From: a virus
Taxonomy: Duplodnaviria > Caudoviricetes
DNA: 64,000 bases
Virus record (IMG/VR): IMGVR_UViG_3300030372_003954
Location: 7,211-71,210 of that record
Direction: 5' to 3' (one strand)
A program made the position numbers and the translations under genes. Below are positions 1 to 46,973 of this stretch, piece by piece. The notes under the pieces were generated by a model that saw only the letters and a list, made by a program, of their open reading frames with translations, made no database searches and was not told the DNA's origin. Each line of letters opens with the position of its first letter. Positions within the stretch are counted from its first letter, which is position 1.

Positions 1-720
1 CCCCCGATTACCGAACAAAAGGTAGTCGAATCAGCACGCTTAGCGAGACGACAAGCAAATGAGCGAGACGCTGCCGAGATGTTTGACGTTACGCCAACAG
101 TGGAAGATTTTGAGCCGCCTGATGATTCTTCATTTGGCGGAGGCATGGAATACGATGCTGACTTTACGCCTGGTGGATTCGAGGACTTTGAGTTGCGACC
201 TGCTCCACTGGAAGACATTGTTGAGGAACCAGCGCCTGCCGATGAGGACTTTGAGTTTAAAGACACTCCACTGGAAGACATCGAAGAAGAAGCAGCGCCA
301 GTAGATCCGGTTTCTGTTGATGATGTTGTGTTCAAAGATGTTGCGCCAGCAGAGATTGTTGAAGAAGCAATCGCACCTCCAAAAGCACGAGGCGCAACCG
401 TGTTCAAGCCGCAGGACGAGGCTTTTTTGGCCAGCCAAAGTTTGGCTCCCATGCTGGAAGAAATCCCACAAGGATACAAAGATCACCCCTCGCTGGTTCT
501 TGAACCGCAAAGCAAACTATGGGATCCTCTCATCAAGAAATCATATTTCTATGATTTAGGAACTTTGCTTACAGATTTGGCGGGACCTGAAAACTACGAA
601 GGCGAACATGTTTTTCTTACTGGTGAGGTTCGCAGAAGGCTAGCAGAGGCGTACAGGTTACAGGAACAACTAGCAAACCGTGAGTTGACTCACAACAACA
701 CAGAAAACATGGTTCGTTGA
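1..720 (+). CDS. 5'-truncated acidic, Pro-rich protein, probably virion-internal
   Basis: Frame 1 is open from base 1 (PPITEQKVVESARLARRQ...) into the 79..720 ORF; D/E/P-rich; directly upstream of the giant gene. Confidence 0.7.
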   Translation, partial: PPITEQKVVESARLARRQANERDAAEMFDVTPTVEDFEPPDDSSFGGGMEYDADFTPGGFEDFELRPAPLEDIVEEPAPADEDFEFKDTPLEDIEEEAAPVDPVSVDDVVFKDVAPAEIVEEAIAPPKARGATVFKPQDEAFLASQSLAPMLEEIPQGYKDHPSLVLEPQSKLWDPLIKKSYFYDLGTLLTDLAGPENYEGEHVFLTGEVRRRLAEAYRLQEQLANRELTHNNTENMVR

Positions 721-735
721 TAGAGGTGATTTTTA

Positions 736-3700
736 ATGGCGACACCACCTGTAACAGGAGTTGTAAGAGGGGCGAATGAAGCTGCTGAAGGTCAGCCTTC
801 AGACATCGACAACTATCCCGCTGGTTACACCGTCCAACAATCCCCAACATTAGATGTTGAAGAAACTGAATCGCTGCGCCTCCAAATCACAGATGCCGCA
901 AGAGACTACCTGGGTAAGGTAGAGGGGATTAGTGGTGACGAGCTTGAGGACAGAACACAAGATTTTTTGCGAGACATGCAGGTCGATCCTGACTTAGGCA
1001 TGAAGGCCACCAAAGCGTGGGCTGCTGACGGGACCACTGAAGATTCTGATTTTAGTAAGTTTCTGAGAGTCTGGATTCCCAGAGATCGAGTTTTTCATGG
1101 AACATCGTACTCACCGGAGGCTGATTATCGTGGTCGATTAGAAACATTGCTAATCCACAACATCGCAGACTCCTTGTTGTCTGAGAGTGAGGACGCCAAC
1201 GGTAACCCGCAAAAGTCTGAGTTGGAGGCATACGCTGATGCTCAGGCAAGCAGTGACGCGCGTCAGACCAATGGCGACCAAGACTTTGTAAACCGATGGG
1301 AGGACCATGAAAGGGCGCTGATACCAAGCGTTACCGGCACCTACATCGACATTGTTTCCGAAAGTGGCGTGGGTCGCGCAATCCAGTCCGTCGTTGGTGG
1401 TGGCGTGGATCTTATCGACTTCTGGTCGGAGCCATACTCCGAAAACTACCCTGGGCAAAACAGAGGTGTCGACTGGTGGAGAAAACAAGACAGGCCGTTT
1501 CACATTCGCACTATTTACAAGGGCCACCCGGCTGCTGATGCACATGAAATCGCTGAAGATCCGGTGACCGGCCAGTTTGCTCCATGGTACGAAAGCGCTG
1601 AGGAGCGCAGTCACTTAGGCACCCTGAGTGCTGAGGAAGCCGCAACCTTCAATCAATATATTAATGAAAGAAACCAACTGGCTTCAGGTAATGGTGACTT
1701 TGTTGATTTGTTCGACCAGTATGTCAAGCAGCGAGACAATTGGTTGGAGATGTGGGACAAAACCAAAGGTTCCTATCCAAGTCAGTTTTCTGGGGAGTTG
1801 AGAAGAGACGGTTTTATTTTTAGGAGCAGGGAATGGTTTGATGCTTGGTCAAGCGGTGCTGAATACCCAAGTCAGTTTGATGAGGACTTTGACAAAAAAC
1901 GCAAAGTCTTTACCGAAATCGACTCGTACCCTCGACAAGATCAGATTGCAAAAGAAGTGCAGCATGCGATTGCGTTAGCACAACTTAGAGAAGAAAAACG
2001 AGGAGACGAAGAAAAGTTTAAGATTGTTACTGAGCGGCTCGACAGGGTTCTCGGAAACATTCCATCAGATTTGTTTCCTGACCGACGATTGAGGGAAACA
2101 CACAGAAACACATACGGCGAGTCTTCATTTGAGACGAGGGCTGGGCACATTAGGAACACCTCTCTTGGCGACATGTTTATGCTTGCCAGTCCTGTGGTTG
2201 AGCTTGTTGCAGAGGGTGGCTCGTGGGTTTTGCCTGGGGTTACACACGACTATGACCCGACTGGAAGCTTTGGAACTGGAGTAAAAGGCACTGCTAGAGC
2301 CGCGCTCCAAACTGCCGACACCATTTATTACGGACTCGACCAGTGGAACATTCCAGACATTCTCACACTTGGCCTCATGCCGGAAGATGTGGGTCGTCAA
2401 GCAGAGGCCCTTTGGGGGAATTCTTTTTTAGAAGACATCAAGAAGTTTGATGACAACAAAGAGTTGATGGGAACGTCTGATGACGAAAGAAAAGCCATGT
2501 TGTTTTCAATGGTTCTTCGTCGAAACAGAAGGCAGATTAAAGTCAACCGATTTATCTTAGATGTCCCTCGGTTTAGCACATACAAAGAAGAAATTTTAGC
2601 CGCTGCTGATAATCCGCAACTACCACAGGGCAGCGACGTAGCGTTTAATCAACAGGGCCAACGCTACAACAGCAGGGGCTTTCACGCGATTATTCAAGGT
2701 GCTAAAGATCGTGCCGAAGAACTGGACATGTCTTTATCTGATTACCTGGACTCTGATTCTGGTATGGCGACGGTTGAAAACAAGCTCAACGACTTGCCGC
2801 TGACACTGATGCCGCCGTCTGTTTCTTCAGCAATTATTAGAGACTTAGGTGGCTACGAAGGAATCCTTCAAGACTCTCGCAACTGGGTAAGTTCAAGAGA
2901 AGCTCGGTACGGTCGTGAAGATCGGCAGTTTGGAAACTTTCTTGAAGAGGGTCTTGGGAACCTTGTCACCAACACTTACGTCGCTGGCACTACGGTTCTG
3001 ACGAAACAGTCGAAAACTGGACGAGCGTTAGAGGTGGCTGGCACTGTAGCGTTTGATCCCCTTGCTGAAGTTGCTATGGACTTGATTGGAGATCCAATCA
3101 TGGCTGTTGGAGAGCAGTTTGGTGCATGGGATTGGGAAGGACGACCTAACGACCGGGGAGGCCTCGGTGACTGGTTTGTTGGATTAGAAAACCCAGAAGC
3201 TGCTGGCTTTATGGGCCGATTCCAAGATGTGGTTCTTGGTATGAAACTTTCCAGGGACAGCGAGGCTTGGAAAAGAGCGCAAGCAGCAGGTCTTGCGTTC
3301 GATGTTTTTGTCCCTGGCGAGTCTTGGCTGCTAAGAACAGCTTCGAGACCAGTAGTTGGGACAACCAGGCTTTGGAATATTCTTGAGGATGTTCCTGGTA
3401 TTTCAACAGACACAATCAGGGCTGCTTATCTCCCAGATGGTATTTTTGGTGTTGGAAGTCTTGAGAAAAAATACGCACCAGTAGAAGACATTTCCAACTT
3501 TGAGCGAGCGCTTGAGGAAGCAGAGGCCGCTGCTGCTGTGTCGCGAAGTGAGTTTGAAGCTGAGTACGGTCGAAGAGATTTAAGAGAGCGGTTGTTCGGT
3601 GATGCTGGAGTGAACCTGGCTAAGCGTCGACTAAAGAGATCGCGACGTCAAATGTATGGCCTGGGCGGGTGGAGGCGTGCGGTCCCTGGAATGGCTCCCC

Positions 3701-6700
3701 GAGAGCTTCGTCGTGAGATAGGCGGACTCCACGACCTCACTGCTTACATGGCCATGGAAATGATGGAGAAGAATCTTCTGCAAGGGCGAAACCCCTTAGA
3801 AGGTTTTGGGTCGAGCTTTCGAGAAAACATAGACGAAGTTTTGCGTGTAGCCGGTGTTGATCCTCAAGATGTGAAGAGGGTCACAAGGGACACATCAGCG
3901 ATGCGTACTGCTCGTTTCTTTTCAGAGGCGGCAGAGCGATTAGATGGCAGCGACGACCTTACTCGCAGCCTTCGCGGAACCTCAGAGTACAAGCAACTTA
4001 GAGACACGCTCGAAGCTCAGAATAAAGCCCTTGATGGCTTGTCTATCGACAAGATGCGTGGGGTCAATGTTGTTGATTCGTACATGGCTTTGATTGAGGC
4101 GAAGGCTGTAGCCTTTGCTCGTCGAGGCGGGCTTGAGTATGGCTTTGATAAGAGCCGTCTCTACATGCAACAGGTTCTACAATCAATCGAGTCTGGCAGA
4201 GCAAAGCCTGGTTCGTTGATTTCAGACTCCGATGTGAGCAATGTTGTTGATGCAGCCAGTCGTTCTGCCGACAACATTTCTCCAGAAAACAGAACTGTAA
4301 TCGACATCAATCTCTCTGATGAGACTCAACTCGAACGCCTCAAGGCATCCCGAGGGCAAGAGTTTGTCCGGTTGGTGGGCACTAAACAGAATCTAAGAAG
4401 ACTGGACATGGAGGAGCTTGTCAATCTGTTGGGTCGTTTTGACCCGGCTGGCATGCCACCAAGGGTAACCGATGACTTTTTAAATGAAATTTCTCATCGT
4501 TTAGCCAGAGCTTTTGCAGAGTCAACGGATGTGGGGGCCCAGAAGTTTGATGAGTTCATGGACATGCTCGTTAATTTGCAAGAGCGAATCACAAGCGATG
4601 TGAATCCCTCAGCATTTGATGGTCGCCGTTTCCTCATTGAAAAACACTTCAGCGAAATCATTCGTCATGTGGCTGGGCGTATTGACGAAGTAAAAAGAAC
4701 AATGGCTGATGAAGCCATTGACTCTGGGGCCCAAGCAGCAAGCATTGCTACTGGTCGAGCACAAATCGCCGCAGCCATTCGAGGCCATGTTGAAAATGGA
4801 TTTCTTGATGCTGACCAAGGTGTAATGCTTGAGGCTTTAGTAATGTCTTTACCAGAAAGGGTTCTGAGAGACATACGATTTGAAGAATCCTTTATGAGGC
4901 CAGAACCCCAGGCTAGAGGTCAGGCATACCAAGTTCTTTTGTCCGAAGGCGGCGGAGTAAATCGGCTCGTAACAGCTATTGAGTTGTTTGCTTACTCAGA
5001 TGAGGTGGGAACAATCAACAGAATGGAGTTTGCTGAGTTTGTTGGTGCCAGCATCGAGGACATTCTTGAGACTGTTCGCACATCGGATGTTTCTGTACCA
5101 ACCAATGCCTTCCAGTCTTTGTCTCTTAGGTTTTTCAACAACAAAATTAATCCAGACACCGGGGTTGCTTACACCGCCAAGCAGCTATCAGAGAAGTTTG
5201 TTGACGCTATTGTTCAACGAAGCAATCGACAAGGTGTCGAGATTTCTGATCAAAAGGTCGAGCAGCTTGTTGCACAGTATGAAGACCAGCTTTTGTCCAT
5301 AAAGCGGAACTCAGAAAAAATCGGCCCCAGGACCTACCACTTTTTGCATGAGCTTGGTCACGCAATCTCAACTTCATTTCTTGCGGACAGTGAGATAGAG
5401 ATTCTCTCCAGGGCGTTTAGAGAAGAGATTGACGACTTTGGATTGTTCCGAGACAGCCCCTACACCAGGAAGTACGAAACGCTTTCGGATGTCCAGTTCG
5501 CTGAGTGGTTTGCTGAAAGCTTTGCAGAGTTTGTAATCCATCATCGTTTGCCCAAGGTTCTGGAAAACCAACCAAACTCAAGCAACCTGATGCGTATCTT
5601 CCATCAACTGATGGTTCGCATTTCTAACTTCCTCGATGGTTGGTACCGTCGTGCCCCAAGAGCAAGAACAGACTTTCATCCAGCGTTTGTTAGCGTTGTT
5701 GAAAGAATGTTTGAAAACAAGGCCAAGCCGATGCTTTCGCGTCGAGAGGTGGCGTTGAGACGGGCATCCTTAATGGGCTTGCGCGTTTCAGACGAAGCAG
5801 TGTTTGGCCGACTTGCGGAAAATCGATCCGGCCTCAACGGACAATACATTCCTGAAATAGATGACATCTCGATAAGCGCAGATGATCTGAGGGCTGCTGA
5901 AGCTTCGGCTGATGTCGCTGCTGAGGTTGTAGAGGAGGTTGCCGCTACCGCTTCCATTGAAATGCAGATCCTTATGCAGCGTGCTGAAAGCGCGAGAGCG
6001 AAGCTTGCCAGGGCTAACACTCTGGGAACCCGCAGGATGTATCAAGCAATGCTTGGTGATGCCGAGCAACGCATTGCTCAACTACAAGATGTTGAAGCTC
6101 AACAAGCTGTACAGTCTCCTGATCTTACGGTGCCAAAGGTTCAAGGCGCTGGCGGTCTCCTTGATATTGAAGGGGCCCTTGACATTATTGGACCAGAAGT
6201 TCGTCGAGTCCTTCAAGAAAGAGACGTATTGGACTCTGGGCACCTGTCGGAGCAGTTGGCGAGAGATTTTGATGGCTCTGCTGAAAAGGTTGGGGGAAGA
6301 CCTCATTTGGTTGTTGACCAAGAAGTTGACCTTGGCTTGAAGCAAAGGATTTACCGATCTGAAATCACGCCAAACCAAGCCAAAGAAATAAAAAAACGAC
6401 TGGGCGATGCATCCCCACTCGAAGACGCATCTGTTGATGTTTCTTTCAACGTCGAACGTATCGTGGATGGGCCAGATGGCCCTGTGATTGAGCGTTCTGC
6501 TGTAACTATTCCTGTCTACCCTATTCTAAAGTCAGGCGACTTTGAGATGGGCATGGGTCGACAGGTGTTGATTCCAGGCGGCTTTGACGGGACATTTAGC
6601 TTTGCAGACGTTCAGTACTTAGCAAGACGGCCCATCGAAGCTATTGCAGATGATGCTGCCACAAAATGGTGGGAGGACATTGGCTCAGACTTGCTGGGGG

Positions 6701-9700
6701 ATTCCGATACGCTTGCAAACTTCCCCGATATTGTAGAGCAATACAAAGAAGCATATCGGAACATGATTAGCCAGTTGTATTCTAAAATGCATAAGGGCTA
6801 TGGAATCGAGCAAATCCGTCCGGCGCACAAAGATTACTTTGTGTCCAACAATCTTAAGTCTGGACCAGATGCTGTTGAATACGCACAGCGTATGGAAATC
6901 CACCTTATGGATGTGGCATCGCAGTACGTTTTCGCGTTTCTTTCCATGAACACGAACCTTATGGACAACATGCATTTTGGTGCGGTTGCTCGACCAAGAA
7001 GCATGTCAGACCTTGGTGACATGGTTCAACGGTATCGTCTTGCTCGAAAAAACAAAGGCGCTCCCCTTACTCGCGATGAGGCCAACTATATTCTTGGGTT
7101 TGCTCTTAGCGTGTCGGAAGGTCGTCTTAAAGACAGATTCGGTGCGAAAACAAAGTTTCTTGACGTTGAAACAGACGTGCTGCCAATGGTCCAAATTCAT
7201 GATTGGAGCAAGCCTGGTGCGCCACTCATCGAGGTCCAGGCCGTAGATGTTGCTGCTTTAAACGCAAACAAAATGGCTAGCTCGTTGCGGTCGGCCCTCA
7301 GCAGATATGACCGGGCTCGCAGAAGGGTAGCCAAGATTGAAGAACGGTTGCCAAAAATTAAACGAGCAGACCTTAAACGCCAACAGCGCTCCGCTCTTAG
7401 AAAAGCAAAGAAGGGAATGCACAGCGCTGAGTCGGACTATCAATCACTCCAGTCTGCTGTAAGTGCAAAAGATGCAGTGGCACTAACGGGTGACGTGGTG
7501 CTCTCCAGTCCTGCCGATACAACCAAGATTCTCGACATGTACGAGATGATGTATGAGGACTTCAAAAGAGTTCAATCTGGAGAGCTTGAGTACTCCTTTT
7601 TTGAAAGATACCCTGGAGAAGATTGGCGTAATTTCTCCGACCGTGTTGCCACAATGGTGCCTGGAATGGCTACCAAGATCAGCATGTTTGGTTTGTACTG
7701 GCAGAACCCTGTCTTGGCAAACATTGGAGCCCTCGACATTCATATGATCGGGTTGATGGGCACAGAGCTTTTCAAACAAGAAAAGTACTTGAACATGGCT
7801 CGTGATTTTTATGACGCTTGGCGTACCCTTAAGGGTGATGCAGCCAAGAATCAGCTAAAAGAAATTGCCGAGAACCAGTTGATTCGAGAATCTGATGGCA
7901 AGAGAACTCCATCAGCGACAGCCATTTCTCGTCGAACTAAACAAATTATTGCCACTGAGCTTCAAAAACGAGCCGCTCTTTCGTTTGAAGACTTTTTAAG
8001 CCCAGACGTTAGCAATCCAGCATACACATTTTGGAGAGATGAGCTTAGGCGGGTCATCACCACGCCAGACGATCTTTTGATCTACCCATCAAAAATCAAA
8101 GAGCTTGTCGAGGTTCTGCCTACCAGAATGATTGATTCTAAGAAGGTCAAGCAAGCCATCAACAAAGTGCGAGCGGATAAGACCAGGACAATCGAAAAAA
8201 GAAAAGCGGACGTAAGTAAGCTTCAAGATGCTTTCCGTGCTCACAAAATGATCGAAAACACCATCACTAAATATGGTGATACACATCCGATTGTTGTCGA
8301 TTTCATGGCTGACTACAAGTCAGGTCAGACACGAAACCTGTCTGTTATGTCTAAAGAATACGAGATGGCCTTAAATCGAGTTGAGGCTGACGTAAAAGAC
8401 CAAGAGTTTATTGAGTCAACCGCTTCCAGACAGCACCAAGTGTGGGACGAATGGCGTGGGTATGTTGACCCTCACGTTATTGTCCAGCCCGGTAGCGCGA
8501 TGTTGCCGTCTGTAAGACCTTCAGCGTTGAAGGCTATCGTAAAGGCTCTCGAAGACACTCTTCCAGAAATTAAAGATCCTGAGCTTCAAGCTGTTCTTAC
8601 TGCTCGTCACAACCGTATGCACACTGGTTTGTTTGGAGAAGGCTTCCGAGACGTGTACGAGTCGTTTAAGCAGGGAGGTTTTTCTGGATCTGCGCCCTTC
8701 AAAGAACGGCCACTACCAACAGAGCTTACACGGGGCGCGTTGTATATTGCAGACTCCGACCCTACCACCGCAACACTCAACACATTCTTAAGTGCAGGCG
8801 AAGACCTTTCAAAGTTTTTCAGCGACGGTGACGTGTCTGCACTGTTTAATGATGCGGCCTATGGCTTGATGTACCTGCTTGGAGACGAGTTTCCACAGGT
8901 AATGGACGAGTTTGCACACCGATTCGACCATGTGATTGCAGATGACGGCGAGCGAATGCTAACCCGTAGAGGGTTTGGTGAGGTTAGAGACGAGTTTGTT
9001 GAGTACTGGCACAACCGATACCATGACGATCCCGTCGTTCATCACGCATTCGAAACGATTCGAGACAAAATAGCGACGTACTGGAGAAGAATACGACCTC
9101 GCGCAGAAAAAATGGAGCCAGGAACTAGGCGGTTGTTTGATGAATGGACCGGCGTTTTAAACGATGCCAAGAAAGAAGCGATGTTCGATGTGAAAAACTC
9201 GCCGTCGTTCAAAGAAATTCCAACCATCAGAATTAAATCAATGGAGGATCTTTTTGAAGAGCGCGTCAGGAAGAAAGGACAGAAGAAGGAAGCAACGCGG
9301 ATTGACTTAGATGAAGGCAGAGTCCGAAGCGCTTTAGACCTCGGTGTTGATGCAACAGAAGTTGATGTGTTTGAAACAGTGAGAAAAGCTGTAGGCTATG
9401 TCGCTACAGAAATGGCTCGCAAAAGATATAGTAACCACTGGGTCGCGTTTTCAGAATCTGGCGGTACTATTGTTCCTCGTAGATTGTTGCCGTCTTATTT
9501 AGAAGCAAAGCAAATTCGAATCTACGGCGTGTTTGGTGACCCTCGTTTGTTCAAAGAACAATTTGTAAGTATAAAAAAACAACGCATCAAGCTGGATGAA
9601 AGAGGCGAGCCGGTTCTTAATCCTGACGGAACCCCCCAAAGAGAAATAGCTATGGAGGTGTTGCCGGATGGGTCTACAGTCCCTCAAACAATTGAGGCAA

Positions 9701-12700
9701 TCAATCTCACAAAAGGACAACAGCTTAACTTTAAGGATTTGATCCTTGAGCTTGGTGCTGACCCGAGAACACGACGAGGCGTGCAACAAGTTCTTGGCGA
9801 GTACTTGGTTCCTGGTGCAGATTTAAGTCAGATCACGGCAAGTCAATACAGGTATGTTGTAGATGAGCTTATTCCTACTCATGTTGCTGGAATGGGCACA
9901 GGTTCCACTAAAGAAATGCAACGAGTTCCAAGGTCTCTTGGTTTTGCAGCCGTACAAGCTTTGACCTTACCAATCCGGGCTACAGGCATTCACAAGCCGC
10001 TCGTCAAAGCATTCAAAACCAACAGGTCTTTAAGTCAAGCAAAAAAAGTTAAACAAACCAAGCAGGGAGAAACTGAAAAGAAAGGGGTTGTTGAGGAAGT
10101 TATCAGTCCTGTTGCAGTAGAGCTTTTTGAGCGCCGACTTCGAGAAATGGAAGACATTGGCAACTGGGTGAGAACCGCTCAACAGCTTTTGAAGGATGGC
10201 AATAAAGATGCCGGTGTGATGCATGTTATTGACGGACTTCGAGAAACATTGCACCAACCTTTAAGCACGCAATCTTATCGAAACTTAGACCGTATTGAGG
10301 CAATTTACAGAAACGAGCCAAGGATTAACAGGCGAGAGCTTGCCGCAGCGCTTGATGAAATTGTGATTGCGTTTGCTGAAAATCGCAAAATGACGCCTGA
10401 AGAGCGCATTGCAATCCGACATTTCCGGTCTATTCATGAGTTGATTGAAGAGGGTAAAATCCCTGAGCCTTTGCCTAAAAGCATTAGAGAGGCATACGGT
10501 GAGTTCGTGGATATTATTGGCCGTGGAATACACGAGCGTTTAGCCGCAGCAGACTCTGCTGCTGCCGACATTATGGCGGCAATGGGCGGCACCCCAGAAC
10601 AAATTCAAATGTTGCGTACTGGAGACGGCGAAACACGCCTTACTGCAAGAAGGGATGCACGCGAGTTTTATAGAGATTTCTATTTGGGCAACTGGGAAAA
10701 CATGCTGCTCACCATGTCCAGAGAAGGACTTGCAATTGGCACAGCTAGAAAATATCCAGGCAAATACAGCATCCCTCACGCTGCTTTAGAAGCAGTGATT
10801 CGTTTGCGGGCTCGCCACATTCAAAAAGCTTTGTTTGAAGACATGGCTAACTTTGGCATTCTTACTAAAATCGACGACGTTGCGCCCGCTGACATTGTTC
10901 GGATGGCAGATCGCCGTAGGTTTGTCGAGCGAGTAAAAGCGTACTTAGATGACGAGCTTGGATTTATGAAGCCAAGAAGGGTCGTAGATCAAGATGGCAA
11001 GGTTATCCAGGTTACTGAGGGTTTTGAAGCAGTAAAAATCGACCCGATTACTGGTCAGAAAAAACAAGGCGGTTCCGCTGGACCAAGCTTAAGAGCCGAT
11101 GAAATTAATCGTTTGGCAGGGGTTGGCGGGTATCGCCCTCTCGCTACAGACATGCCTGGTGAGGGCCTTGGGTACGATCAAATATACCGACACGATGTTG
11201 AGGCCTTCACCGTTGCCCATCAAATGATTGAAAAATGGGGCATGAAGTACGGCGCAAACATTGAGCATTGGAGGATCTTTCGAGATGTCGATGGCGTTGA
11301 ACGATTGGTTCCAAAGTTTTTCGCAGACGAAATGGAAAGGGCTGTAGATAATGTGGCTGGAGTTGCCTCTGGACGATCTGCTGGATTCCAAACAAGAGCT
11401 ACAAGATTTGATATTCCCTATGAGTTTTTGCCAAATCTGCGGAAACCCGGTTTGCTTGAGGTTTCTAAGGAGCGGGTCAAAGTTGCATCCACAGATGTTT
11501 TAAACTTTGTTTTAAACACATACCCAACAACATATCGCCTGATGAAGCAAGGACTTACAACAGGCTTGGGCATTATTAACCTACCGTATTTCTTTACAAA
11601 CTTTGTAGGCGCACAGGTTCAAATGTTTATGGCGGTAGGACCTAAAGGGTACTTCCTTAATAATCCTTTGATTACCATGAACGCATTAGAAGTGGCTGCT
11701 GCGGTTTGGGGCGGAACGCCTCAAATGAGGTTTGGTAAGATAAAACCTATTGTAGGACCTGACGGTACAGTCTACACCAAAGCTCAACTGATTAAAGCGA
11801 TTAGCGAGCACAATCTGACAGGTTCGTTTATTCGCCAGGAAACGGCAAGATCGCTTACTGAGGACTTGAAAAGAAACTCACCGTCGTTTTGGCAGGAAAT
11901 GACTAAGGAAAACCCTCTGTACAAAGACACGGCAGAGGGCGCTGCTGATTTTCCAATGGCGGCAGGCATTGACACGGCTAACATCCCAGGACCATTGAGG
12001 ATTATTGATTTCTATCAAACACAGTTGATGAACTTTGCAACCTACATCGACAACGTGCATCGAACATCTGTGTTTCTAAATGGTTTGGAACAAGGAATGA
12101 GCGCCGCTGAAGCGGCAAAGTTGGCCCGAGAAGCGTTGTTTGACTATTCAGACTTGACGTCTTTTGAAAAAACTTGGATGCGAAATGCGTTCATTTTCTA
12201 TTCGTTCCAGCGAAAGAACATTGATCTTTTCTACCGCACCTTACTGACTCATCCTGAAAGAGCGTTGGCTCAGATACGATTGGGTCGTGGTTTAAATCAA
12301 ATCTTCCTTGATGGAGATTCAGATCTTATTGAAAGCGATTTTAACAGCGCTCGATTTGGAATGTTTTACTTGGGCAGGACAGGTAAATCCATCGCTCAAG
12401 CCTTTCGTTACAACGCCCCTCCATTCCCTGCAATCGACGCAATCAAAACAATAATGACTATGCTTGGAGGGTTTAGTGCTTTGATGCCAGCAAAAGGAAT
12501 TGTTCAAAGACAACAGCAGATCAAGGAAAGCTTGAAGTCGCTTACCCTACTAAACCCTTGGTTGCAGTATCCATTTGCCATGTATTTTGATCAAAACCTC
12601 TTCAAAGGGAAAGACTTACAGTCGGAACGGATTCCGCTTTGGTTTGCTCAGTATGACATGCTCACCACTGGCGGCATGATCTTGCAAAGCGTAGACGCTA

Positions 12701-13404
12701 AACCAAGACCAAGAAAACGATGGGAGCCTGAAGAGTACCCAGGTCAAGTCATGGTTTATGAAGCAACAGACACTGTGAATTGGTATATTTTAAAAAATGG
12801 GTTCCATGGTGTTTTTCCGGTTGCACCCCTTAGAGATAGCGTTGTTCCAGGCGTGCCCCTCCCCTTACTCGACAAGTCCCCTGCTGGTCTTATTCTACGA
12901 ATGAACCCAGTTGAAGCTTTCGAAAGAGGCATGTCGACGGCAGGGCTGCCAATGGAAATGGGTTTTGCTGGTCGAGCCATTGACCAAATGACCCGGTTGA
13001 CTCGCATGAATTCATTTGTTCCGCAGATTTTAGAAATGGAAATGGAGCATTACAATGAAAACGTGCGAGCAGGGCGGAGAGAATCTATTTATCAAGAAGA
13101 CGATCCCAATGTTCTTCGTAAACTTCAGGCCCTTGGTTTTATGAAAGACCCTGCAACAGGAGAAGTCACTTTCGCTCAGGCCGCTGGCGAGCCTGTCATG
13201 GGAGAGCGCCCACGAGTTGGCGTAGAAGAGGGTATTCTAACTTGGATGCTTTCTGTTCAAGAGATTCCCACAGAACAACACGCATACCTTATGCATCATA
13301 TGAGACAACGACAGTATCTTTTGTCTATTTTGAACGAGTTGAAAACAAGATCGGAATCAAAGCCCCTTGACGTCGAAGACACATATCAAACTCCGGGTGA
13401 CTAA
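736..13404 (+). CDS. Giant (4222 aa) polyvalent-type virion/ejection protein
   Basis: Uninterrupted 12.7-kb ORF with RBS AGAGGTGAT; HELGH...EWFAE zincin motif; HhH-like motif; C-terminal FDYSDLTSFEK...FYSFQRKN motif typical of phage internal proteins. Confidence 0.85.
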   Translation: MATPPVTGVVRGANEAAEGQPSDIDNYPAGYTVQQSPTLDVEETESLRLQITDAARDYLGKVEGISGDELEDRTQDFLRDMQVDPDLGMKATKAWAADGTTEDSDFSKFLRVWIPRDRVFHGTSYSPEADYRGRLETLLIHNIADSLLSESEDANGNPQKSELEAYADAQASSDARQTNGDQDFVNRWEDHERALIPSVTGTYIDIVSESGVGRAIQSVVGGGVDLIDFWSEPYSENYPGQNRGVDWWRKQDRPFHIRTIYKGHPAADAHEIAEDPVTGQFAPWYESAEERSHLGTLSAEEAATFNQYINERNQLASGNGDFVDLFDQYVKQRDNWLEMWDKTKGSYPSQFSGELRRDGFIFRSREWFDAWSSGAEYPSQFDEDFDKKRKVFTEIDSYPRQDQIAKEVQHAIALAQLREEKRGDEEKFKIVTERLDRVLGNIPSDLFPDRRLRETHRNTYGESSFETRAGHIRNTSLGDMFMLASPVVELVAEGGSWVLPGVTHDYDPTGSFGTGVKGTARAALQTADTIYYGLDQWNIPDILTLGLMPEDVGRQAEALWGNSFLEDIKKFDDNKELMGTSDDERKAMLFSMVLRRNRRQIKVNRFILDVPRFSTYKEEILAAADNPQLPQGSDVAFNQQGQRYNSRGFHAIIQGAKDRAEELDMSLSDYLDSDSGMATVENKLNDLPLTLMPPSVSSAIIRDLGGYEGILQDSRNWVSSREARYGREDRQFGNFLEEGLGNLVTNTYVAGTTVLTKQSKTGRALEVAGTVAFDPLAEVAMDLIGDPIMAVGEQFGAWDWEGRPNDRGGLGDWFVGLENPEAAGFMGRFQDVVLGMKLSRDSEAWKRAQAAGLAFDVFVPGESWLLRTASRPVVGTTRLWNILEDVPGISTDTIRAAYLPDGIFGVGSLEKKYAPVEDISNFERALEEAEAAAAVSRSEFEAEYGRRDLRERLFGDAGVNLAKRRLKRSRRQMYGLGGWRRAVPGMAPRELRREIGGLHDLTAYMAMEMMEKNLLQGRNPLEGFGSSFRENIDEVLRVAGVDPQDVKRVTRDTSAMRTARFFSEAAERLDGSDDLTRSLRGTSEYKQLRDTLEAQNKALDGLSIDKMRGVNVVDSYMALIEAKAVAFARRGGLEYGFDKSRLYMQQVLQSIESGRAKPGSLISDSDVSNVVDAASRSADNISPENRTVIDINLSDETQLERLKASRGQEFVRLVGTKQNLRRLDMEELVNLLGRFDPAGMPPRVTDDFLNEISHRLARAFAESTDVGAQKFDEFMDMLVNLQERITSDVNPSAFDGRRFLIEKHFSEIIRHVAGRIDEVKRTMADEAIDSGAQAASIATGRAQIAAAIRGHVENGFLDADQGVMLEALVMSLPERVLRDIRFEESFMRPEPQARGQAYQVLLSEGGGVNRLVTAIELFAYSDEVGTINRMEFAEFVGASIEDILETVRTSDVSVPTNAFQSLSLRFFNNKINPDTGVAYTAKQLSEKFVDAIVQRSNRQGVEISDQKVEQLVAQYEDQLLSIKRNSEKIGPRTYHFLHELGHAISTSFLADSEIEILSRAFREEIDDFGLFRDSPYTRKYETLSDVQFAEWFAESFAEFVIHHRLPKVLENQPNSSNLMRIFHQLMVRISNFLDGWYRRAPRARTDFHPAFVSVVERMFENKAKPMLSRREVALRRASLMGLRVSDEAVFGRLAENRSGLNGQYIPEIDDISISADDLRAAEASADVAAEVVEEVAATASIEMQILMQRAESARAKLARANTLGTRRMYQAMLGDAEQRIAQLQDVEAQQAVQSPDLTVPKVQGAGGLLDIEGALDIIGPEVRRVLQERDVLDSGHLSEQLARDFDGSAEKVGGRPHLVVDQEVDLGLKQRIYRSEITPNQAKEIKKRLGDASPLEDASVDVSFNVERIVDGPDGPVIERSAVTIPVYPILKSGDFEMGMGRQVLIPGGFDGTFSFADVQYLARRPIEAIADDAATKWWEDIGSDLLGDSDTLANFPDIVEQYKEAYRNMISQLYSKMHKGYGIEQIRPAHKDYFVSNNLKSGPDAVEYAQRMEIHLMDVASQYVFAFLSMNTNLMDNMHFGAVARPRSMSDLGDMVQRYRLARKNKGAPLTRDEANYILGFALSVSEGRLKDRFGAKTKFLDVETDVLPMVQIHDWSKPGAPLIEVQAVDVAALNANKMASSLRSALSRYDRARRRVAKIEERLPKIKRADLKRQQRSALRKAKKGMHSAESDYQSLQSAVSAKDAVALTGDVVLSSPADTTKILDMYEMMYEDFKRVQSGELEYSFFERYPGEDWRNFSDRVATMVPGMATKISMFGLYWQNPVLANIGALDIHMIGLMGTELFKQEKYLNMARDFYDAWRTLKGDAAKNQLKEIAENQLIRESDGKRTPSATAISRRTKQIIATELQKRAALSFEDFLSPDVSNPAYTFWRDELRRVITTPDDLLIYPSKIKELVEVLPTRMIDSKKVKQAINKVRADKTRTIEKRKADVSKLQDAFRAHKMIENTITKYGDTHPIVVDFMADYKSGQTRNLSVMSKEYEMALNRVEADVKDQEFIESTASRQHQVWDEWRGYVDPHVIVQPGSAMLPSVRPSALKAIVKALEDTLPEIKDPELQAVLTARHNRMHTGLFGEGFRDVYESFKQGGFSGSAPFKERPLPTELTRGALYIADSDPTTATLNTFLSAGEDLSKFFSDGDVSALFNDAAYGLMYLLGDEFPQVMDEFAHRFDHVIADDGERMLTRRGFGEVRDEFVEYWHNRYHDDPVVHHAFETIRDKIATYWRRIRPRAEKMEPGTRRLFDEWTGVLNDAKKEAMFDVKNSPSFKEIPTIRIKSMEDLFEERVRKKGQKKEATRIDLDEGRVRSALDLGVDATEVDVFETVRKAVGYVATEMARKRYSNHWVAFSESGGTIVPRRLLPSYLEAKQIRIYGVFGDPRLFKEQFVSIKKQRIKLDERGEPVLNPDGTPQREIAMEVLPDGSTVPQTIEAINLTKGQQLNFKDLILELGADPRTRRGVQQVLGEYLVPGADLSQITASQYRYVVDELIPTHVAGMGTGSTKEMQRVPRSLGFAAVQALTLPIRATGIHKPLVKAFKTNRSLSQAKKVKQTKQGETEKKGVVEEVISPVAVELFERRLREMEDIGNWVRTAQQLLKDGNKDAGVMHVIDGLRETLHQPLSTQSYRNLDRIEAIYRNEPRINRRELAAALDEIVIAFAENRKMTPEERIAIRHFRSIHELIEEGKIPEPLPKSIREAYGEFVDIIGRGIHERLAAADSAAADIMAAMGGTPEQIQMLRTGDGETRLTARRDAREFYRDFYLGNWENMLLTMSREGLAIGTARKYPGKYSIPHAALEAVIRLRARHIQKALFEDMANFGILTKIDDVAPADIVRMADRRRFVERVKAYLDDELGFMKPRRVVDQDGKVIQVTEGFEAVKIDPITGQKKQGGSAGPSLRADEINRLAGVGGYRPLATDMPGEGLGYDQIYRHDVEAFTVAHQMIEKWGMKYGANIEHWRIFRDVDGVERLVPKFFADEMERAVDNVAGVASGRSAGFQTRATRFDIPYEFLPNLRKPGLLEVSKERVKVASTDVLNFVLNTYPTTYRLMKQGLTTGLGIINLPYFFTNFVGAQVQMFMAVGPKGYFLNNPLITMNALEVAAAVWGGTPQMRFGKIKPIVGPDGTVYTKAQLIKAISEHNLTGSFIRQETARSLTEDLKRNSPSFWQEMTKENPLYKDTAEGAADFPMAAGIDTANIPGPLRIIDFYQTQLMNFATYIDNVHRTSVFLNGLEQGMSAAEAAKLAREALFDYSDLTSFEKTWMRNAFIFYSFQRKNIDLFYRTLLTHPERALAQIRLGRGLNQIFLDGDSDLIESDFNSARFGMFYLGRTGKSIAQAFRYNAPPFPAIDAIKTIMTMLGGFSALMPAKGIVQRQQQIKESLKSLTLLNPWLQYPFAMYFDQNLFKGKDLQSERIPLWFAQYDMLTTGGMILQSVDAKPRPRKRWEPEEYPGQVMVYEATDTVNWYILKNGFHGVFPVAPLRDSVVPGVPLPLLDKSPAGLILRMNPVEAFERGMSTAGLPMEMGFAGRAIDQMTRLTRMNSFVPQILEMEMEHYNENVRAGRRESIYQEDDPNVLRKLQALGFMKDPATGEVTFAQAAGEPVMGERPRVGVEEGILTWMLSVQEIPTEQHAYLMHHMRQRQYLLSILNELKTRSESKPLDVEDTYQTPGD

Positions 13405-21746: not shown

Positions 21747-21923
21747 ATATGAAGACGGTTACCCGGTCGTATAGGCATCGCTCCACTGAAAAGATGAAAA
21801 TTAGAAAGTCATCCGTGACAGTGGTTCGCGTTGGTTTTAAAGATCGCAAGCCTTCTGTTCAGGGTGCCAACAACAATACTGAGGACAAGACGTGTGGTCC
21901 TCAGCCTGGGCAGGAGGCATCCC

Positions 21924-22730
21924 ATGTTGATCAAGAAGGGAAGTAGAGGCGACGACGTTAAAGAAATCCAGAAGGCGTTGAACGACAAGGGCTATGGCCA
22001 AATCGGCGTCGATGGAATCTTTGGTAGTGGCACTGAGAAGGCCGTGAAGCGCTTCCAGAAAGCGTCAGGACTGGCCGCAGACGGAATCGTAGGGCCCAAC
22101 ACCCTCAATGCTTTACAGGCCGCTGAGGAGCCAAAGCAGCCTGAAGTGTCTGATGAGCCCCCTGCCATCATTGGTGTGCTTAAAGCTAAAGGCTACGAGG
22201 TCTACACCGATGGCCAGATCAACACGATTGGTGTGCGATCTAACAACCCGATCTCCAACAGCTTCGATGATGAGATGCACTTGGTGTGGGTGAACAACGC
22301 ATTGTGGCAACACAAGAAGTACAGAATAACCACGGATCCAGGGACTTTTTGCTTAGAGCATCCTGAGGTCTATGGAAGTTCCGCTGGTACAGCCATCATG
22401 GTTCCCGGCTCATACAGGGCGTATAAGTGGGATATGCACCGTGGAAAGTATGAAACTCTGTGCCAGAGGGCAGCGCCCATCCGCGTCTGGAGGGACAATG
22501 ATCGCAATAATATTTTGTCGTTTGGCCATGACGATGACCTCGGAATCGAGGGCTGGTACGGGGTGAATTTGCACCATGCTGGGATCAACTCTACGCGAGT
22601 AGATAAATGGTCGGCAGGCTGCCAGGTCTTTGCCCGAATCGCAGACTGGGAAGAAGCTGTTAAGATTTGGAAGGCATCGGAGGCTGAGGTCTTCACTTAT
22701 ACCCTCATCACCGAAGATGACCTGTCGTAG
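21924..22730 (+). CDS. Endolysin: peptidoglycan-binding domain plus YkuD/L,D-transpeptidase-like catalytic domain
   Basis: KKGSRGDDVKEIQ..L...VDGIFG..TEKAVKRFQ...L.ADGIVG..T (PG_binding_1); NLHHA...WSAGCQV; AGGAGG RBS at 21912 fixes the start at 21924. Confidence 0.8.
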   Translation: MLIKKGSRGDDVKEIQKALNDKGYGQIGVDGIFGSGTEKAVKRFQKASGLAADGIVGPNTLNALQAAEEPKQPEVSDEPPAIIGVLKAKGYEVYTDGQINTIGVRSNNPISNSFDDEMHLVWVNNALWQHKKYRITTDPGTFCLEHPEVYGSSAGTAIMVPGSYRAYKWDMHRGKYETLCQRAAPIRVWRDNDRNNILSFGHDDDLGIEGWYGVNLHHAGINSTRVDKWSAGCQVFARIADWEEAVKIWKASEAEVFTYTLITEDDLS

Positions 22731-23105: not shown

Positions 23106-23894
23106 TCATGCCAGAGCCGCGCCAAGGTCGCTCATTCCATTTAGCTCCTTGGGTTCATCCTCGCCAACGATTGGCGTGATGTCGATAGGAGGCATCTTTG
23201 CGTGCGGATCATCGCCATCCGCAGAAACAGCCGTTGCAAGCTCGAACGACATTGGAACGGTTCCGCCGTTAAACAGAGCACGAATAGCACTCTTACGAGC
23301 CATTCGAGAGTAGTCGTCTACCCAGGGGCCACTTCGACCAGCCTTGGAGCGGCGGCGAACCTTGTCGATGTCCACCTTCCAAAGCACTTCAAAGTAAGAT
23401 GATCCGTCCTTAAGAACAGCAACAGCGTATGCCGCAACGATCTTGTCGTCTGACCTATCCACGTCTCCACGAACACTGTGCTCGATGTTCGGGTGCAAGC
23501 CAGCGGTCACCTCAAACTTTTCGCCCTCATAAACGACACGAGCATCAAGGCGTGCCACCTGACCACTGCGACGAGCAAGCTCCAGGTATCCTTTGTAGCC
23601 AATGATAGGAGTACACTTGTTTCCGTATGGGATGAAGTAGATGTGGCCCAGTGTGCCTCCCGGCTCCAGCCCGAGTTGAGCGGACAACATAATAGACTCC
23701 GCCACGGAAATGGTGCTGCACTCCAATAGCTTAGGAGTTCTGCTGGCCTCAACGATCATCACCTTACACAGGCGCTCAGGAGTGAGGTGCTTAGGCAAGA
23801 TAGCTGCCACCTGATCCTTCATTTTACCGTTGATAAGGTCCTTGAATTTGTCCATTTTAGTTACTGGTTTCTGAGCGATTTCGTTCTTCGACAT
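23106..23894 (-). CDS. recT: RecT-family single-strand annealing protein
   Basis: AQLGLEPG..LGHIYFIPYG..C..IIGYKGYLELARRSGQ; W..DYSRMARKSAIR. Confidence 0.92.
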   Translation of the reverse strand: MSKNEIAQKPVTKMDKFKDLINGKMKDQVAAILPKHLTPERLCKVMIVEASRTPKLLECSTISVAESIMLSAQLGLEPGGTLGHIYFIPYGNKCTPIIGYKGYLELARRSGQVARLDARVVYEGEKFEVTAGLHPNIEHSVRGDVDRSDDKIVAAYAVAVLKDGSSYFEVLWKVDIDKVRRRSKAGRSGPWVDDYSRMARKSAIRALFNGGTVPMSFELATAVSADGDDPHAKMPPIDITPIVGEDEPKELNGMSDLGAALA

Positions 23895-24871
23895 TAGTTG
23901 CCTCTCTTGTGTTGAATGTTCATTCGAAAGATTCGCGATGGTTCGCTGGTCTTAGTAAATTGTTTTGCGATTTCAGGATGTTCTTTACGAAGAGACTTGG
24001 AGTCAAGCGATGACCTGCCCTTGTTCATCTTCCAAGACACAGTTCCAAACACGCCGTTTAGACCGGCATTGTCTGCGATTCGCTCTTTGATTTGATTTTT
24101 AAGCAAGGCTTCTCTTTCCTTCATGGATTTGATTTCCGTCTGGAGATCATGAAGGTCGAAGATAAGCTCTTCTTCTACTGGGTCAGCGGTCCTGTACTCT
24201 TGGCCTGGATCGCCAAACTTGTCTTGTAAAAACTTGTCAGCAGCAGGCGAGCCATCAATGGGTGGTGGCTCTCCACCCACGACGTGCTTCTGCCACCAGT
24301 CGCCGCACTTATTTACAAGCTTCTTCTCAGTCTTCTTGTTTCTTACAAGGGTGTACCGACGAAACTCATCGTTGACCAAGAACAAAACTGCAAAGTCCCA
24401 TCGGTCAATGTTGGTGCAAGCCATGTACCAAGCAGCTTGTGTGGCATAGTAAACAGGTACGCCAGAACCGAGGTCCTCTCCCCAGCCGTCGACGCTACGC
24501 GCCGTTTTTATTTCCAACCCGAACCGGCTCTTTCCGGCGCTGACGTACCTGTCGGGGGAGGCAAGCATAAAAGGCTTTGGTCCGACGATGGGCATTTCCT
24601 CGCCGTCTACGACCTCGTATCCTGTCTCCTCCTGATACCATGTGGCAATTGCAGATTCTAATAGGCGGCCCCTCCGCATTGCGTTTGTTTCTGGAATCTC
24701 TTCTGAGAGCCCTCTTTTAGCTGCCCATACGTCCATGGGCGAAGACCACTTGGATAACCCAAGGACTGCGGCAATATCTGAGCCGCCGAGCCCTTTCATT
24801 CTAGCTTCAAACCATCCATCAGGTTTAGGCAAAACACCCTCCATGCGATATGCTGTTTCTATGAAAGACAA
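23894..24871 (-). CDS. YqaJ / lambda-type exonuclease
   Basis: W..AR.KGLGGSDIAAVLG.SKW; MLASPDR; LEIKT; YY.TQ..WYM; true start may be the ATG at 24844. Confidence 0.9.
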   Translation of the reverse strand: MSFIETAYRMEGVLPKPDGWFEARMKGLGGSDIAAVLGLSKWSSPMDVWAAKRGLSEEIPETNAMRRGRLLESAIATWYQEETGYEVVDGEEMPIVGPKPFMLASPDRYVSAGKSRFGLEIKTARSVDGWGEDLGSGVPVYYATQAAWYMACTNIDRWDFAVLFLVNDEFRRYTLVRNKKTEKKLVNKCGDWWQKHVVGGEPPPIDGSPAADKFLQDKFGDPGQEYRTADPVEEELIFDLHDLQTEIKSMKEREALLKNQIKERIADNAGLNGVFGTVSWKMNKGRSSLDSKSLRKEHPEIAKQFTKTSEPSRIFRMNIQHKRGN

Positions 24872-45103: not shown

Positions 45104-45286
45104 TTACCCTTCTTGCTTTGAGCCAAACAAGGTTGTGTTTACCTCAAAGTCATCTTTGAGCTTCCAGTGCTTTGGAGCGTTGTGATAGACACACACAGCT
45201 TTCCATTGCCCTTGTCGATTGACAACGACTGCGGACTGCCTTTTGCATCCTTCGATTTCACATTCGCCAGGTGGCTTTTCACTCAT
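45104..45286 (-). CDS. Cys/His small protein (60 aa)
   Basis: CEIEGC...CVYH; overlaps the methylase stop. Confidence 0.6.
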   Translation of the reverse strand: MSEKPPGECEIEGCKRQSAVVVNRQGQWKAVCVYHNAPKHWKLKDDFEVNTTLFGSKQEG

Positions 45287-45902
45287 CGTACTTGTCAAAC
45301 ACCCAAGAGATGTACTTCTTGTGGTTCTTCCCATCGCCTTGTCTAAAGACCAAGATTGCCGAACCTTTCGGAGCGCTTGATGCTTTCGACCCATCTTCAC
45401 GACGGAAAGGCACACGACCCTTCATCAGACGAATCTGGTCAGCCTTCCAAGCCCAGTTGTGCCACCAAATGGTATCGGTACAAGCCATAACAAGCATGAC
45501 AACCGTCTTGCCCTTGAGTGACTCTTGCCAACCTTTCTTGACCCAGTCACCGACTTTGCGACCGTAAGGAGGATTGCAGTAGACGACATCAGCGTCCCAA
45601 TCGACCGAAAGAGCATCTTGCCGTGACGAATCTTCGTGATCTGGTCCGAAGTACTTATCGACAAGAGCGGTGTGCTTGAGAGCAGCAGAATCGAGTCCGA
45701 ATCCAAACTCACGGTCGAGACGGTCGAACAAAGGCTTTGGTGTGCGCCAAGTGTCATTCTCTGACGAGTGAATTGCCTTCCAGGCTGGAGACTTTTCGAC
45801 TTTCTTAGGAGCAGCCTTGGCCTTTGGCTTAGCAGGAGCCTTTGCTTTTGCCTTGGTAGCTGGTTTCTTAGCTGGCGCTTTTGGTTTCTTAGCAGTTGGC
45901 AT
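45279..45902 (-). CDS. dam: Phage DNA N6-adenine methyltransferase (Dam family) with a Lys/Ala/Pro N-terminal tail
   Basis: WRTP..LFD.LD.EFGF.LD.AA; DAL..DW; YCNPPYG; VMLV.ACTDT.WW; IRLMKGR..F. Confidence 0.88.
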   Translation of the reverse strand: MPTAKKPKAPAKKPATKAKAKAPAKPKAKAAPKKVEKSPAWKAIHSSENDTWRTPKPLFDRLDREFGFGLDSAALKHTALVDKYFGPDHEDSSRQDALSVDWDADVVYCNPPYGRKVGDWVKKGWQESLKGKTVVMLVMACTDTIWWHNWAWKADQIRLMKGRVPFRREDGSKASSAPKGSAILVFRQGDGKNHKKYISWVFDKYDE

Positions 45903-46418: not shown

Positions 46419-46973
46419 ATGGAAGATGTAAAAGAGAAGCCTCTTGTTTTTGATGGCGAGCCTGTGTCTGCTTTATTGAACGGACAGCTTGTAAAATCGG
46501 AGCCGAGCGAGGTCATAAAACGTGAGGCAGAAGAGCTTGTAGGATTCAAGCCTACAGATCGAATGGAAGTGATGCAAGCCATTGCTATTACATGTGAAGA
46601 GCAGGGTCTTGGGTACTTAAGAGATTGGATCAAGTCGGCCAGAACCCATGATTTCTTCCGAAAAGAGGCCTTTTCCATGAAAGAATGGAACGAATGGGTC
46701 GAAATTAAGGGGTTCAATGGGTGGTTTTACGGTGGATTTCCGCTTCCCAGAACGATGTCAAAAGAGGATATTGAGGGCTTAGATGCGCTATTTTGGGACC
46801 AAATGAGGACAATGATGCGCGAAGGGGACACGAAGATCATGGATCTGTACGCGAAGATCACAGGTAAGACTTTGCAACCCGAGGATAAGGAAGAAACAAG
46901 CACGGCTATCGTCGAGTGGCTGCAAGTGAATGCTGGTTCAGCCGGTTGGAAGTCTGTTCGGAAGTTGAAATGA
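46419..46973 (+). CDS. Putative terminase small subunit
   Basis: Directly upstream of terL with ATGA overlap; helical; GD.KIM.LY.K..G. Confidence 0.55.
   Translation: MEDVKEKPLVFDGEPVSALLNGQLVKSEPSEVIKREAEELVGFKPTDRMEVMQAIAITCEEQGLGYLRDWIKSARTHDFFRKEAFSMKEWNEWVEIKGFNGWFYGGFPLPRTMSKEDIEGLDALFWDQMRTMMREGDTKIMDLYAKITGKTLQPEDKEETSTAIVEWLQVNAGSAGWKSVRKLK

Follow-up and report, generated by a model that had tools for sequence, protein, structure and literature searches.

A conserved domain within the giant protein

The window analysed here, a stretch of 64,000 nt from a tailed phage (Caudoviricetes), comprises bases 7211-71210 of a virus record of 71,210 bp with direct terminal repeats (IMG/VR record IMGVR_UViG_3300030372_003954). 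Within a late structural gene block it carries a giant open reading frame encoding a protein of 4222 residues. One module of this protein could be assigned a fold in our analysis: residues ~1940-2620 probably constitute a divergent, insertion-bearing glycosylase-type domain of the HhH-GPD superfamily (HhH, helix-hairpin-helix), with a modelled fold nearest to that of the Ogg2 enzymes. A preliminary description of the region had proposed such a domain from three peptides arranged in the order expected for glycosylases of the Ogg and endonuclease III type. The features concerned are listed below in window positions, together with residue numbers of the giant protein; P0034 is a compact homologue of 488 residues.

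736-13404, + strand: giant open reading frame that carries the domain, 4222 residues (list of open reading frames and translation)
6553-8595, + strand, residues ~1940-2620: whole HhH-GPD-like domain with two lineage-specific helical insertions (hhalign and P0034 model)
6568-6642, + strand, residues 1945-1969: N-terminal conserved motif LIPGGFDGTFSFADVQYLARRPIEA, aligned to P0034 ~33-57
6925-6969, + strand, residues 2064-2078: piece 1, YVFAFLSMNTNLMDN, end of a helix and Ser/Asn loop
7036-7485, + strand, residues ~2101-2250: insertion 1, antiparallel coiled-coil hairpin of ~150 residues, not in the compact family (hhalign gap against P0034 131-160)
7618-7755, + strand, residues 2295-2340: HhH, Pro-containing loop and catalytic-type Asp, EDWRNFSDRVATM-VPGMAT-K2314-ISMFGLYWQNPVLANIGAL-D2334-IHMIGL
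7654-7746, + strand, residues 2307-2337: piece 2, MVPGMATK...ALDIHM
7675-7677, + strand: codon of Lys2314, the predicted Schiff-base nucleophile
7735-7737, + strand: codon of Asp2334, predicted to be the catalytic aspartate; the invariant His2336 comes after it
7783-8355, + strand, residues ~2350-2540: insertion 2, helical subdomain (hhalign; predicted local distance difference test score, pLDDT, 82-98 over local residues 300-510 of the window-copy model)
8431-8478, + strand, residues 2566-2581: piece 3, QHQVWDEWRGYVDPHV (begins QHQVWDEW), last conserved helix and loop of the fold

All three peptides are present in the order and at the positions described, and nowhere else in the region is conservation as strong. 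Conservation was judged from an alignment of the window protein with five giants of 46-51% identity and one giant of 5371 residues and 25% identity. The invariant residues of the region cluster in the three pieces, also in comparison with the 25%-identical giant: H2056, D2059, S2070, T2073, N2074 and N2078 around piece 1, G2310, M2311, T2313, K2314, F2318, P2325, A2332, D2334 and H2336 in piece 2, and W2570, D2571, R2574, Y2576 and P2579 in piece 3. The stretches between the pieces, previously described as long helical inserts, are indeed helical in the model of the window copy. With respect to the extent of the domain, the preliminary description was right that a conserved domain lies here, but its boundaries (6900-8460) were too narrow. 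According to hhalign, the domain extends from residue ~1940 (nt 6553), where a PGGFDGTFSFAD motif opens it, to residue ~2620 (nt 8595). Near its start, the LIPGGFDGTFSFADVQYLARRPIEA motif contains nine residues that are invariant in the alignment of giants (P1947, G1948, G1949, G1952, F1954, S1955, F1956, D1958 and Y1961). In the compact family, the corresponding segment is a beta-hairpin with the first helix, placed ahead of the HhH-GPD core; the N-terminal strands of the P0034 model span residues 22-27 and 30-35.

An exhaustive phmmer search of 1.84 billion representatives with residues 1950-2650 as the query yielded 104 matches. About 90 of them are distant proteins of 250-5000 residues in which the same segments follow in the same order, closer together, as three collinear segments. 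Compact relatives were found with E-values down to 7e-11, and the distant relatives share the near-constant motif PGLSxKTGSFGxVWQDPxxAxISAxDRHM. In four other proteins (P0046, P0083, P0101 and P0104) the match is confined to residues 2281-2311 of the giant and recurs in four to five tandem copies. They are repeat proteins that have nothing but a short FFERYP-like segment in common with the domain and were excluded from the family.

P0034 has 106 relatives of 270-850 residues, which are annotated as 'hypothetical protein' at most and in which an occasional fused ART-PolyVal is the only Pfam domain. When the alignment of the giants (residues 1900-2660) was compared with that of the compact family, hhalign returned a probability of 100% and an E-value of 6.6e-45 over 468 columns, covering P0034 from residue 1 to 488. 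At 50% identity the compact family, whose members have ~500-700 residues, falls into ~100 clusters; IMG/VR contains 252 loci that encode relatives, and BFVD one uncharacterised relative, from an uncultured phage. The family is large, unannotated and confined to uncultured phages, in which it occurs either as a stand-alone protein of ~500-700 residues or as a module of multi-enzyme 'polyvalent' virion proteins.

Fold of the domain and its putative catalytic residues

The fold was seen on the homologue. The AlphaFold2 model of P0034, built from 127 sequences, has a pLDDT of 94 and a predicted template modelling score of 0.90. It was compared by VIA-align with each of 48,161 representative PDB chains, and the top 24 chains were all HhH-GPD proteins. 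The best match was the Thermotoga Ogg Tm1821 with a Z-score of 12.9 and a root-mean-square deviation (rmsd) of 3.3 Å over 198 of 209 residues. It was followed by hOGG1 (Z 9.0), MagIII (8.7), NTHL1 (8.3), QNG1/DUF2419 (8.2), Clostridium Ogg (8.0), endonuclease III (7.9), AlkA (7.6) and ROS1 (7.6); MutY, Mag1, AGOG, MIG, MBD4 and TAG were also among the matches. Behind the HhH-GPD proteins came unrelated helical hairpins with Z-scores of at most 5.6, which covered only the insertion. The E-values of a Foldseek search were not significant, and only MjOgg, Deinococcus endonuclease III and MagIII reached a probability of at least 0.3. Realignment of the Foldseek list placed SsOgg (Z 13.4, rmsd 3.1 Å, 195 of 207 residues) and MjOgg (Z 13.1) in front; here the 43 top rows were all HhH-GPD, after which Z dropped to 4.8. 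We regard the match as real because one superfamily fills the list, because nearly the whole target chain is covered, and because the scores of the rows that follow are distinctly lower. The glycosylase proposal of the preliminary description is hence supported by a model that matches this superfamily only and covers 94-95% of the Ogg2 chains. Judged from this model, the domain very probably belongs to the HhH-GPD superfamily.

The elements that define the superfamily could be located in the model. The preliminary description had staked its proposal on the presence of a helix-hairpin-helix, and P0034 has one: a helix at residues 197-207, a hairpin at 208-212 and a second helix at 213-223. Lys214 opens this second helix, a Pro loop follows, and Asp234 caps the helix 235-245, which is the classic HhH-GPD layout. 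A lysine that opens the second HhH helix, together with a later aspartate, is the signature of bifunctional DNA glycosylase/lyases such as endonuclease III and Ogg. Conservation of the two residues among homologues, on which the proposal also depended, is complete: both are present in all 126 aligned sequences, and all 178 proteins that carry the motif keep them 20 residues apart. The histidine two positions behind the aspartate (His236 in P0034, His2336 in the window) is found in 125 of 126 sequences, G210 in 126 of 126, and the loop proline (P2325 in the window) in 117 of 127. The hairpin reads VPGMATK in the window and PGLSxK or GLGTK in relatives; its second glycine is often replaced by Ala or Ser. 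The distance between Lys2314 and Asp2334 is 20 residues, as had been noted earlier; in E. coli endonuclease III, whose sequence was taken from the K-12 genome, K120 and D138 lie 18 residues apart.

The two outer pieces can be placed by their position. At piece 1, the compact family has the consensus SPNxPLxPN, with S100, P101, N102 and N108 in at least 118 of 127 sequences. In the window, the segment FLSMNTNLMDN lies at the position of LLSAQATD in endonuclease III, which is the DNA-reading loop of that enzyme. From this position we infer that piece 1 is the functional counterpart of the LLSAQATD segment. At piece 3, the family consensus is QWxxWDRxRxRLEPHE, with W388, W391, D392, R395 and H401 in 123-124 of 127 sequences. 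The structural alignments with Ogg2 end in this piece, where residue 401 of P0034 meets residue 207 of the chain. Again judged by position, piece 3 probably forms part of the base-binding pocket.

Several observations weigh against this assignment. The Pfam model of the superfamily, PF00730, gave no match at E-values up to 5-10, whether with the whole giant, with the isolated domain or with 38 relatives, although the same model readily recovers Nth, MutY and AlkA in E. coli. Because PF00730 fails to match, we place the domain in the superfamily on the grounds of its fold and motifs, but outside the Pfam family in its current definition. Searches of the PDB with phmmer and hmmsearch, using the domain, the motif of 61 residues or a profile of 38 sequences, found nothing credible; the best sequence match was an ADP-ribosyltransferase (E 0.11) located inside an insertion. 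The comparison with E. coli endonuclease III by hhalign was not significant either (P 0.015-0.034, probability 1.5-3%). Its sole alignment pairs the family Lys with K120 and the Asp with D138, with a gap of two residues. A set of 120 endonuclease III homologues gave the profile comparison no added power, since these are 86-99% identical. The second glycine of the classic GxG hairpin is Ala in the lineage of the giants, and the catalytic register was read from helix positions and the alignment rather than from superposed residues. The VIA-align tool itself warns that Z-scores below ~13 can reflect a common arrangement in helical proteins. Finally, the phage itself is uncultured, and neither DNA nor protein comparison found a cultured relative among 50,697 GenBank phage records.

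The AlphaFold model of the window copy itself (residues 2040-2615) was built from 38 sequences, with piece 1 misaligned in the input alignment. It has a pLDDT of 69 overall and of ~61-68 around the motif, where the second HhH helix hardly forms. Foldseek against the PDB returned nothing for this model, and VIA-align returned only coiled-coil hairpins on insertion 1, outcomes that carry no information on the fold. Thus, of the structure comparison suggested in the preliminary description, the part concerning the window copy gave a weak model without a glycosylase match, whereas the model of the homologous P0034 led to the HhH-GPD superfamily. As the window model is weak at the core, the fold of the window copy was assigned via homology (hhalign), and the identity between P0034 and the window domain is only ~20-25%.

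Both insertions of the window copy are large and helical. Within insertion 1, the model helices at local residues 138-168 and 172-204 have a pLDDT of 80-90; the Arg/Lys-rich hairpin RRRVAKIEERLPKIKRADLKRQQRSALRKAKK at nt 7252-7479 (residues 2173-2248) is confidently predicted. Its structural matches were generic helical hairpins only (Z 9-10), and it could serve as an extra arm for binding DNA or a partner. Insertion 2 is an enlarged form of the helical hairpin that lies behind the Asp helix in the compact family (P0034 244-324). This element is matched only by unrelated helical hairpins (Z at most 5.6) and has no equivalent in Ogg2 enzymes.

No other name for the domain emerged from sequence searches. 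Scans of the whole giant, the domain and at least 38 relatives with the Pfam and PHROG models found neither a glycosylase nor any other family. A protein-language-model search placed P0034 near viral clusters of which 13-58% of the members carry DUF7178 (PF23802). The lead was not confirmed: HMMER finds no DUF7178 in P0034, in three relatives, in the window domain or in the whole phage genome. A virion RNA polymerase of the T7 or N4 type was considered and rejected: the motifs do not fit, and the fold search yielded glycosylases only. In the literature searched, the coverage of which was incomplete, there was no description of such a domain, no mention of DUF7178, and no paper that joins a DNA glycosylase with an ejection protein. 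The 2017 survey of polyvalent proteins (PMC5512222) covers 131 domains and does not contain the word 'glycosylase', and the only such enzyme named in a survey of jumbo phages is T4 endonuclease V, whose fold is different. This agrees with the earlier remark that the domain is not a standard module of ejection proteins, as does the lack of any Pfam or PHROG model matching it. The family is new to the literature searched.

Gene neighbourhood and probable delivery into the host

The remaining features of the window that were considered are the following.

5341-5370, + strand, residues 1536-1545, within the giant: zincin-type HExxH motif FLHELGHAIS (HELGH at residues 1538-1542)
21831-22730: peptidoglycan-binding protein near the RecT/YqaJ pair
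23106-24871, - strand: recombination pair of RecT (PF03837) and YqaJ exonuclease (PF09588)
45279-45902, - strand: Dam-like N6-adenine DNA methyltransferase (PF05869, E 1.3e-28)
46916-48511: terminase, late structural block
57584-58642: major head protein, late structural block
61856-63958: internal virion protein/amidase, late structural block

The late block runs on past the end of the genome record into a small number of genes directly upstream of the giant gene (genome positions 1-7300), whose matches to lysins or tape-measure proteins are weak; the giant gene comes next. A DnaB helicase is likewise encoded by the phage. The Dam-like methylase may matter if the glycosylase-like domain discriminates between methylated and unmethylated DNA.

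The giant protein contains no cysteine at all, and its giant relatives of 4450-5371 residues contain zero to two. This looks like strong selection against cysteine, as would suit a chain of 4222 residues that has to unfold in order to cross the envelope. The gene context of the relatives was read for 40 of 80 loci out of the 252 in IMG/VR, where the host genes encode 466-3208 residues. Among 25 scanned upstream neighbours of relatives were at least seven portal proteins, and one neighbour has a match to a PHROG whose description reads 'released from the phage upon host infection'. The slot behind the portal gene is the usual place of head-packaged, ejected proteins (SPP1 gp7/MuF type). Scaffold, terminase, tail-fibre and internal virion proteins are among the downstream neighbours, but so are integrases and DNA polymerases. 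Relatives are found fused to ART-PolyVal, GNAT or ParB-C modules. Since the domain is part of a late structural module, has no cysteine and is often encoded beside portal genes in relatives, the phage probably delivers it into the host together with its DNA. The zincin-type HELGH motif and the modules fused to relatives add to this evidence, which is circumstantial.

Two other regions of the giant are strongly conserved. The HELGH block is invariant even in the 25%-identical giant (P1531, T1533, Y1534, F1536, L1537, L1540, G1541 and H1542), and no Pfam peptidase model matches it. A zincin module also occurs in phage polyvalent proteins (PMC5512222). Across the whole giant, invariant residues are packed most closely at ~11500-12300 of the window (residues ~3590-3860), with stretches such as DYSDLTxFEK...FYSFxRKNxDLF and NLPYxxxNxxGAQxQ. 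This part has no family match and is probably a further enzymatic or channel-forming module.

Right behind the domain, an open +1 frame was observed at 8633-8791 of the window (52 residues); a 56%-identical relative (L002) has one at 11982-12242 (86 residues). The two products are 35% identical, rich in Cys, Arg and Ser, and not acidic. Such identity is expected because the conserved frame overlaps, and the +1 frame is probably not a gene.

Proposed function and comparison with known systems

The fold and the invariant Lys/Asp pair suggest a bifunctional DNA N-glycosylase/apurinic-apyrimidinic lyase, and from model and motifs we consider a catalytic activity of this kind on DNA likely. By analogy with the superfamily, the HhH (residues 2295-2323) would bind the DNA backbone while the Ser/Asn loop (residues 2069-2078) would probe the duplex. 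A base would then be flipped into a pocket lined by the residues of WQNP and WDEWR...PH. Lys2314, helped by Asp2334, would attack C1', so that the base is removed and the strand is subsequently cut by beta-elimination. The giant, cysteine-free protein would be packed in the particle and enter with the DNA; being delivered in this way, the enzyme would act in the first minutes of infection.

It is conceivable that the HhH-GPD fold is used on a substrate other than DNA. The domain would then be an N-glycosidase for nucleosides, nucleotides or small molecules, like the queuosine-salvage enzyme QNG1/DUF2419, and at an early stage of infection could break down a signalling nucleotide of the host or a modified nucleotide. 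QNG1/DUF2419 is indeed among the structural matches (7ugk with Z 8.2, 7u07 with Z 8.0), some relatives are fused to ART-PolyVal, which uses nicotinamide adenine dinucleotide, and the pocket residues (WQDP, WDRxRxRLEPHE) are unlike those of the characterised DNA glycosylase families compared. Yet the Ogg2 enzymes match far better (Z 12.9-13.4 versus 8.2) and over nearly their full length, and an invariant Lys followed at 20 residues by an Asp is characteristic of bifunctional DNA glycosylase/lyases, which makes a non-DNA substrate improbable. We also give little credit to a non-catalytic module whose HhH holds or guides the end of the phage DNA during ejection, even though HhH motifs bind DNA without sequence preference and the host protein probably travels with the DNA. 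A mere DNA-binding role does not explain why Lys and Asp (126/126), His (125/126) and the spacing of 20 residues (178/178) are kept across relatives of less than 25% identity, nor why a dozen more invariant polar and aromatic residues line the presumed pocket, a pattern that is enzyme-like.

The most sceptical explanation is a chance resemblance, in which a helical spacer of a giant structural protein has motifs that only look like HhH-GPD. It would fit with the lack of Pfam and PDB sequence matches and with the window model, which matches generic coiled coils only. However, throughout a family of more than 100 clusters these motifs form the invariant core, and out of 48,161 chains the family model with a pLDDT of 94 matches HhH-GPD proteins only, with a coverage of 94-95% for the Ogg2 chains; we therefore hold a chance resemblance to be very improbable.

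If the domain is a DNA glycosylase/lyase, two roles come into consideration. It may serve in conflict with the host, by nicking host DNA or by removing a base marked by a host defence, which we judge to be a serious possibility though not quite a probable one. Repair of damage accumulated in the phage's own DNA appears doubtful in comparison. The offensive or counter-defence role is somewhat likelier than self-repair because of the association with conflict-type modules. A specificity for 8-oxoguanine is not implied, since the pocket is unlike that of Ogg, Nth or AlkA and the chain runs past the C-terminal residue of Ogg2. In the broadest form of this proposal, tailed phages would widely pack and eject a dedicated base-excision or nicking enzyme of a distinct HhH-GPD family, as an early conflict effector rather than for housekeeping repair; we advance this only tentatively.

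HhH-GPD glycosylases are textbook repair enzymes of cells, and the effectors known to be injected by phages are RNA polymerases, methylases, ADP-ribosyltransferases and nucleases. If our interpretation is true, an 'ejected DNA glycosylase' joins this repertoire. A phage-restricted HhH-GPD branch that is invisible to Pfam and PHROGs and resides in probably injected proteins would be a new tool of early infection. It could explain how host DNA is disabled, how base modifications made by defence systems are removed, or how sunlight or oxidative damage of the genome is repaired before transcription. As the family is large, a single assay would annotate thousands of 'hypothetical' phage proteins. 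Some of its members might prove to be glycosylases of novel base specificity, which would be of use in mapping DNA modifications.

Among known systems, the Ogg2 enzymes, which are small 8-oxoguanine DNA glycosylase/apurinic-apyrimidinic lyases (SsOgg, 3fhg; MjOgg, 3fhf/3knt; Tm1821, 3n0u), are the best fold match (Z 12.9-13.4, rmsd 3.1-3.3 Å, 195-198 of ~207 residues). In common with them, the domain has two helical lobes and an HhH whose second helix begins with a Lys, as well as an Asp that caps the helix after it. Neither has an iron-sulfur cluster, which for the window domain follows from the lack of cysteine in the giant. The identity, however, is 8-11%, and no sequence method connects them. 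The spacing of Lys and Asp is 20 residues here and ~18 in Ogg2. An additional beta-hairpin region is present at the N-terminus and a long helical insertion after the Asp helix, and the window copy also has the coiled-coil insertion of 150 residues. Whereas Ogg2 is a free repair enzyme of ~207 residues, the domain is embedded in a virion protein of 4222 residues. The C-terminal lysine of Ogg2 helps in recognition of the 8-oxoguanine lesion. Past the end point of Ogg2, P0034 continues for 87 residues and the giant for ~1640, and the aligned region at this place is the invariant EPHE motif. Because the chain continues beyond this point, the C-terminal lysine of Ogg2 cannot have the same place here, and the domain is not filed as Ogg2.

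With endonuclease III/Nth (2abk, Z 7.9), the similarity extends to the motifs: LPGVGRK(120)...AVD(138)THI compares with VPGMATK(2314)...ALD(2334)IHM, and LLSAQATD with FLSMNTNL. It differs in that the GPD loop is two residues longer in the phage domain, large insertions are present and PF00730 does not match. The four-Cys [4Fe-4S] loop of endonuclease III and MutY is absent, there being no cysteine in the giant or in P0034.

The giant protein as a whole resembles the polyvalent proteins (PMC5512222), for example N4 gp50 and P1 DarB, in its size, its location among virion genes, its zincin-like HExxH motif and its expected role in the first minutes of infection. Unlike these, it is matched by no Pfam LPD, polyvalent or MPTase model and has no recognisable RNA polymerase, methylase or helicase. 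A similar architecture is known from the plant 5-methylcytosine glycosylases DEMETER and ROS1 (7yho, Z 7.6), in which the HhH-GPD domain is likewise split by long non-conserved insertions within a very large protein. These enzymes are eukaryotic, carry an iron-sulfur cluster and have a different pocket, and no specific relationship to them is shown. In this comparison, the window copy is the most insertion-laden form of a phage-only HhH-GPD branch, residing inside a giant virion protein.

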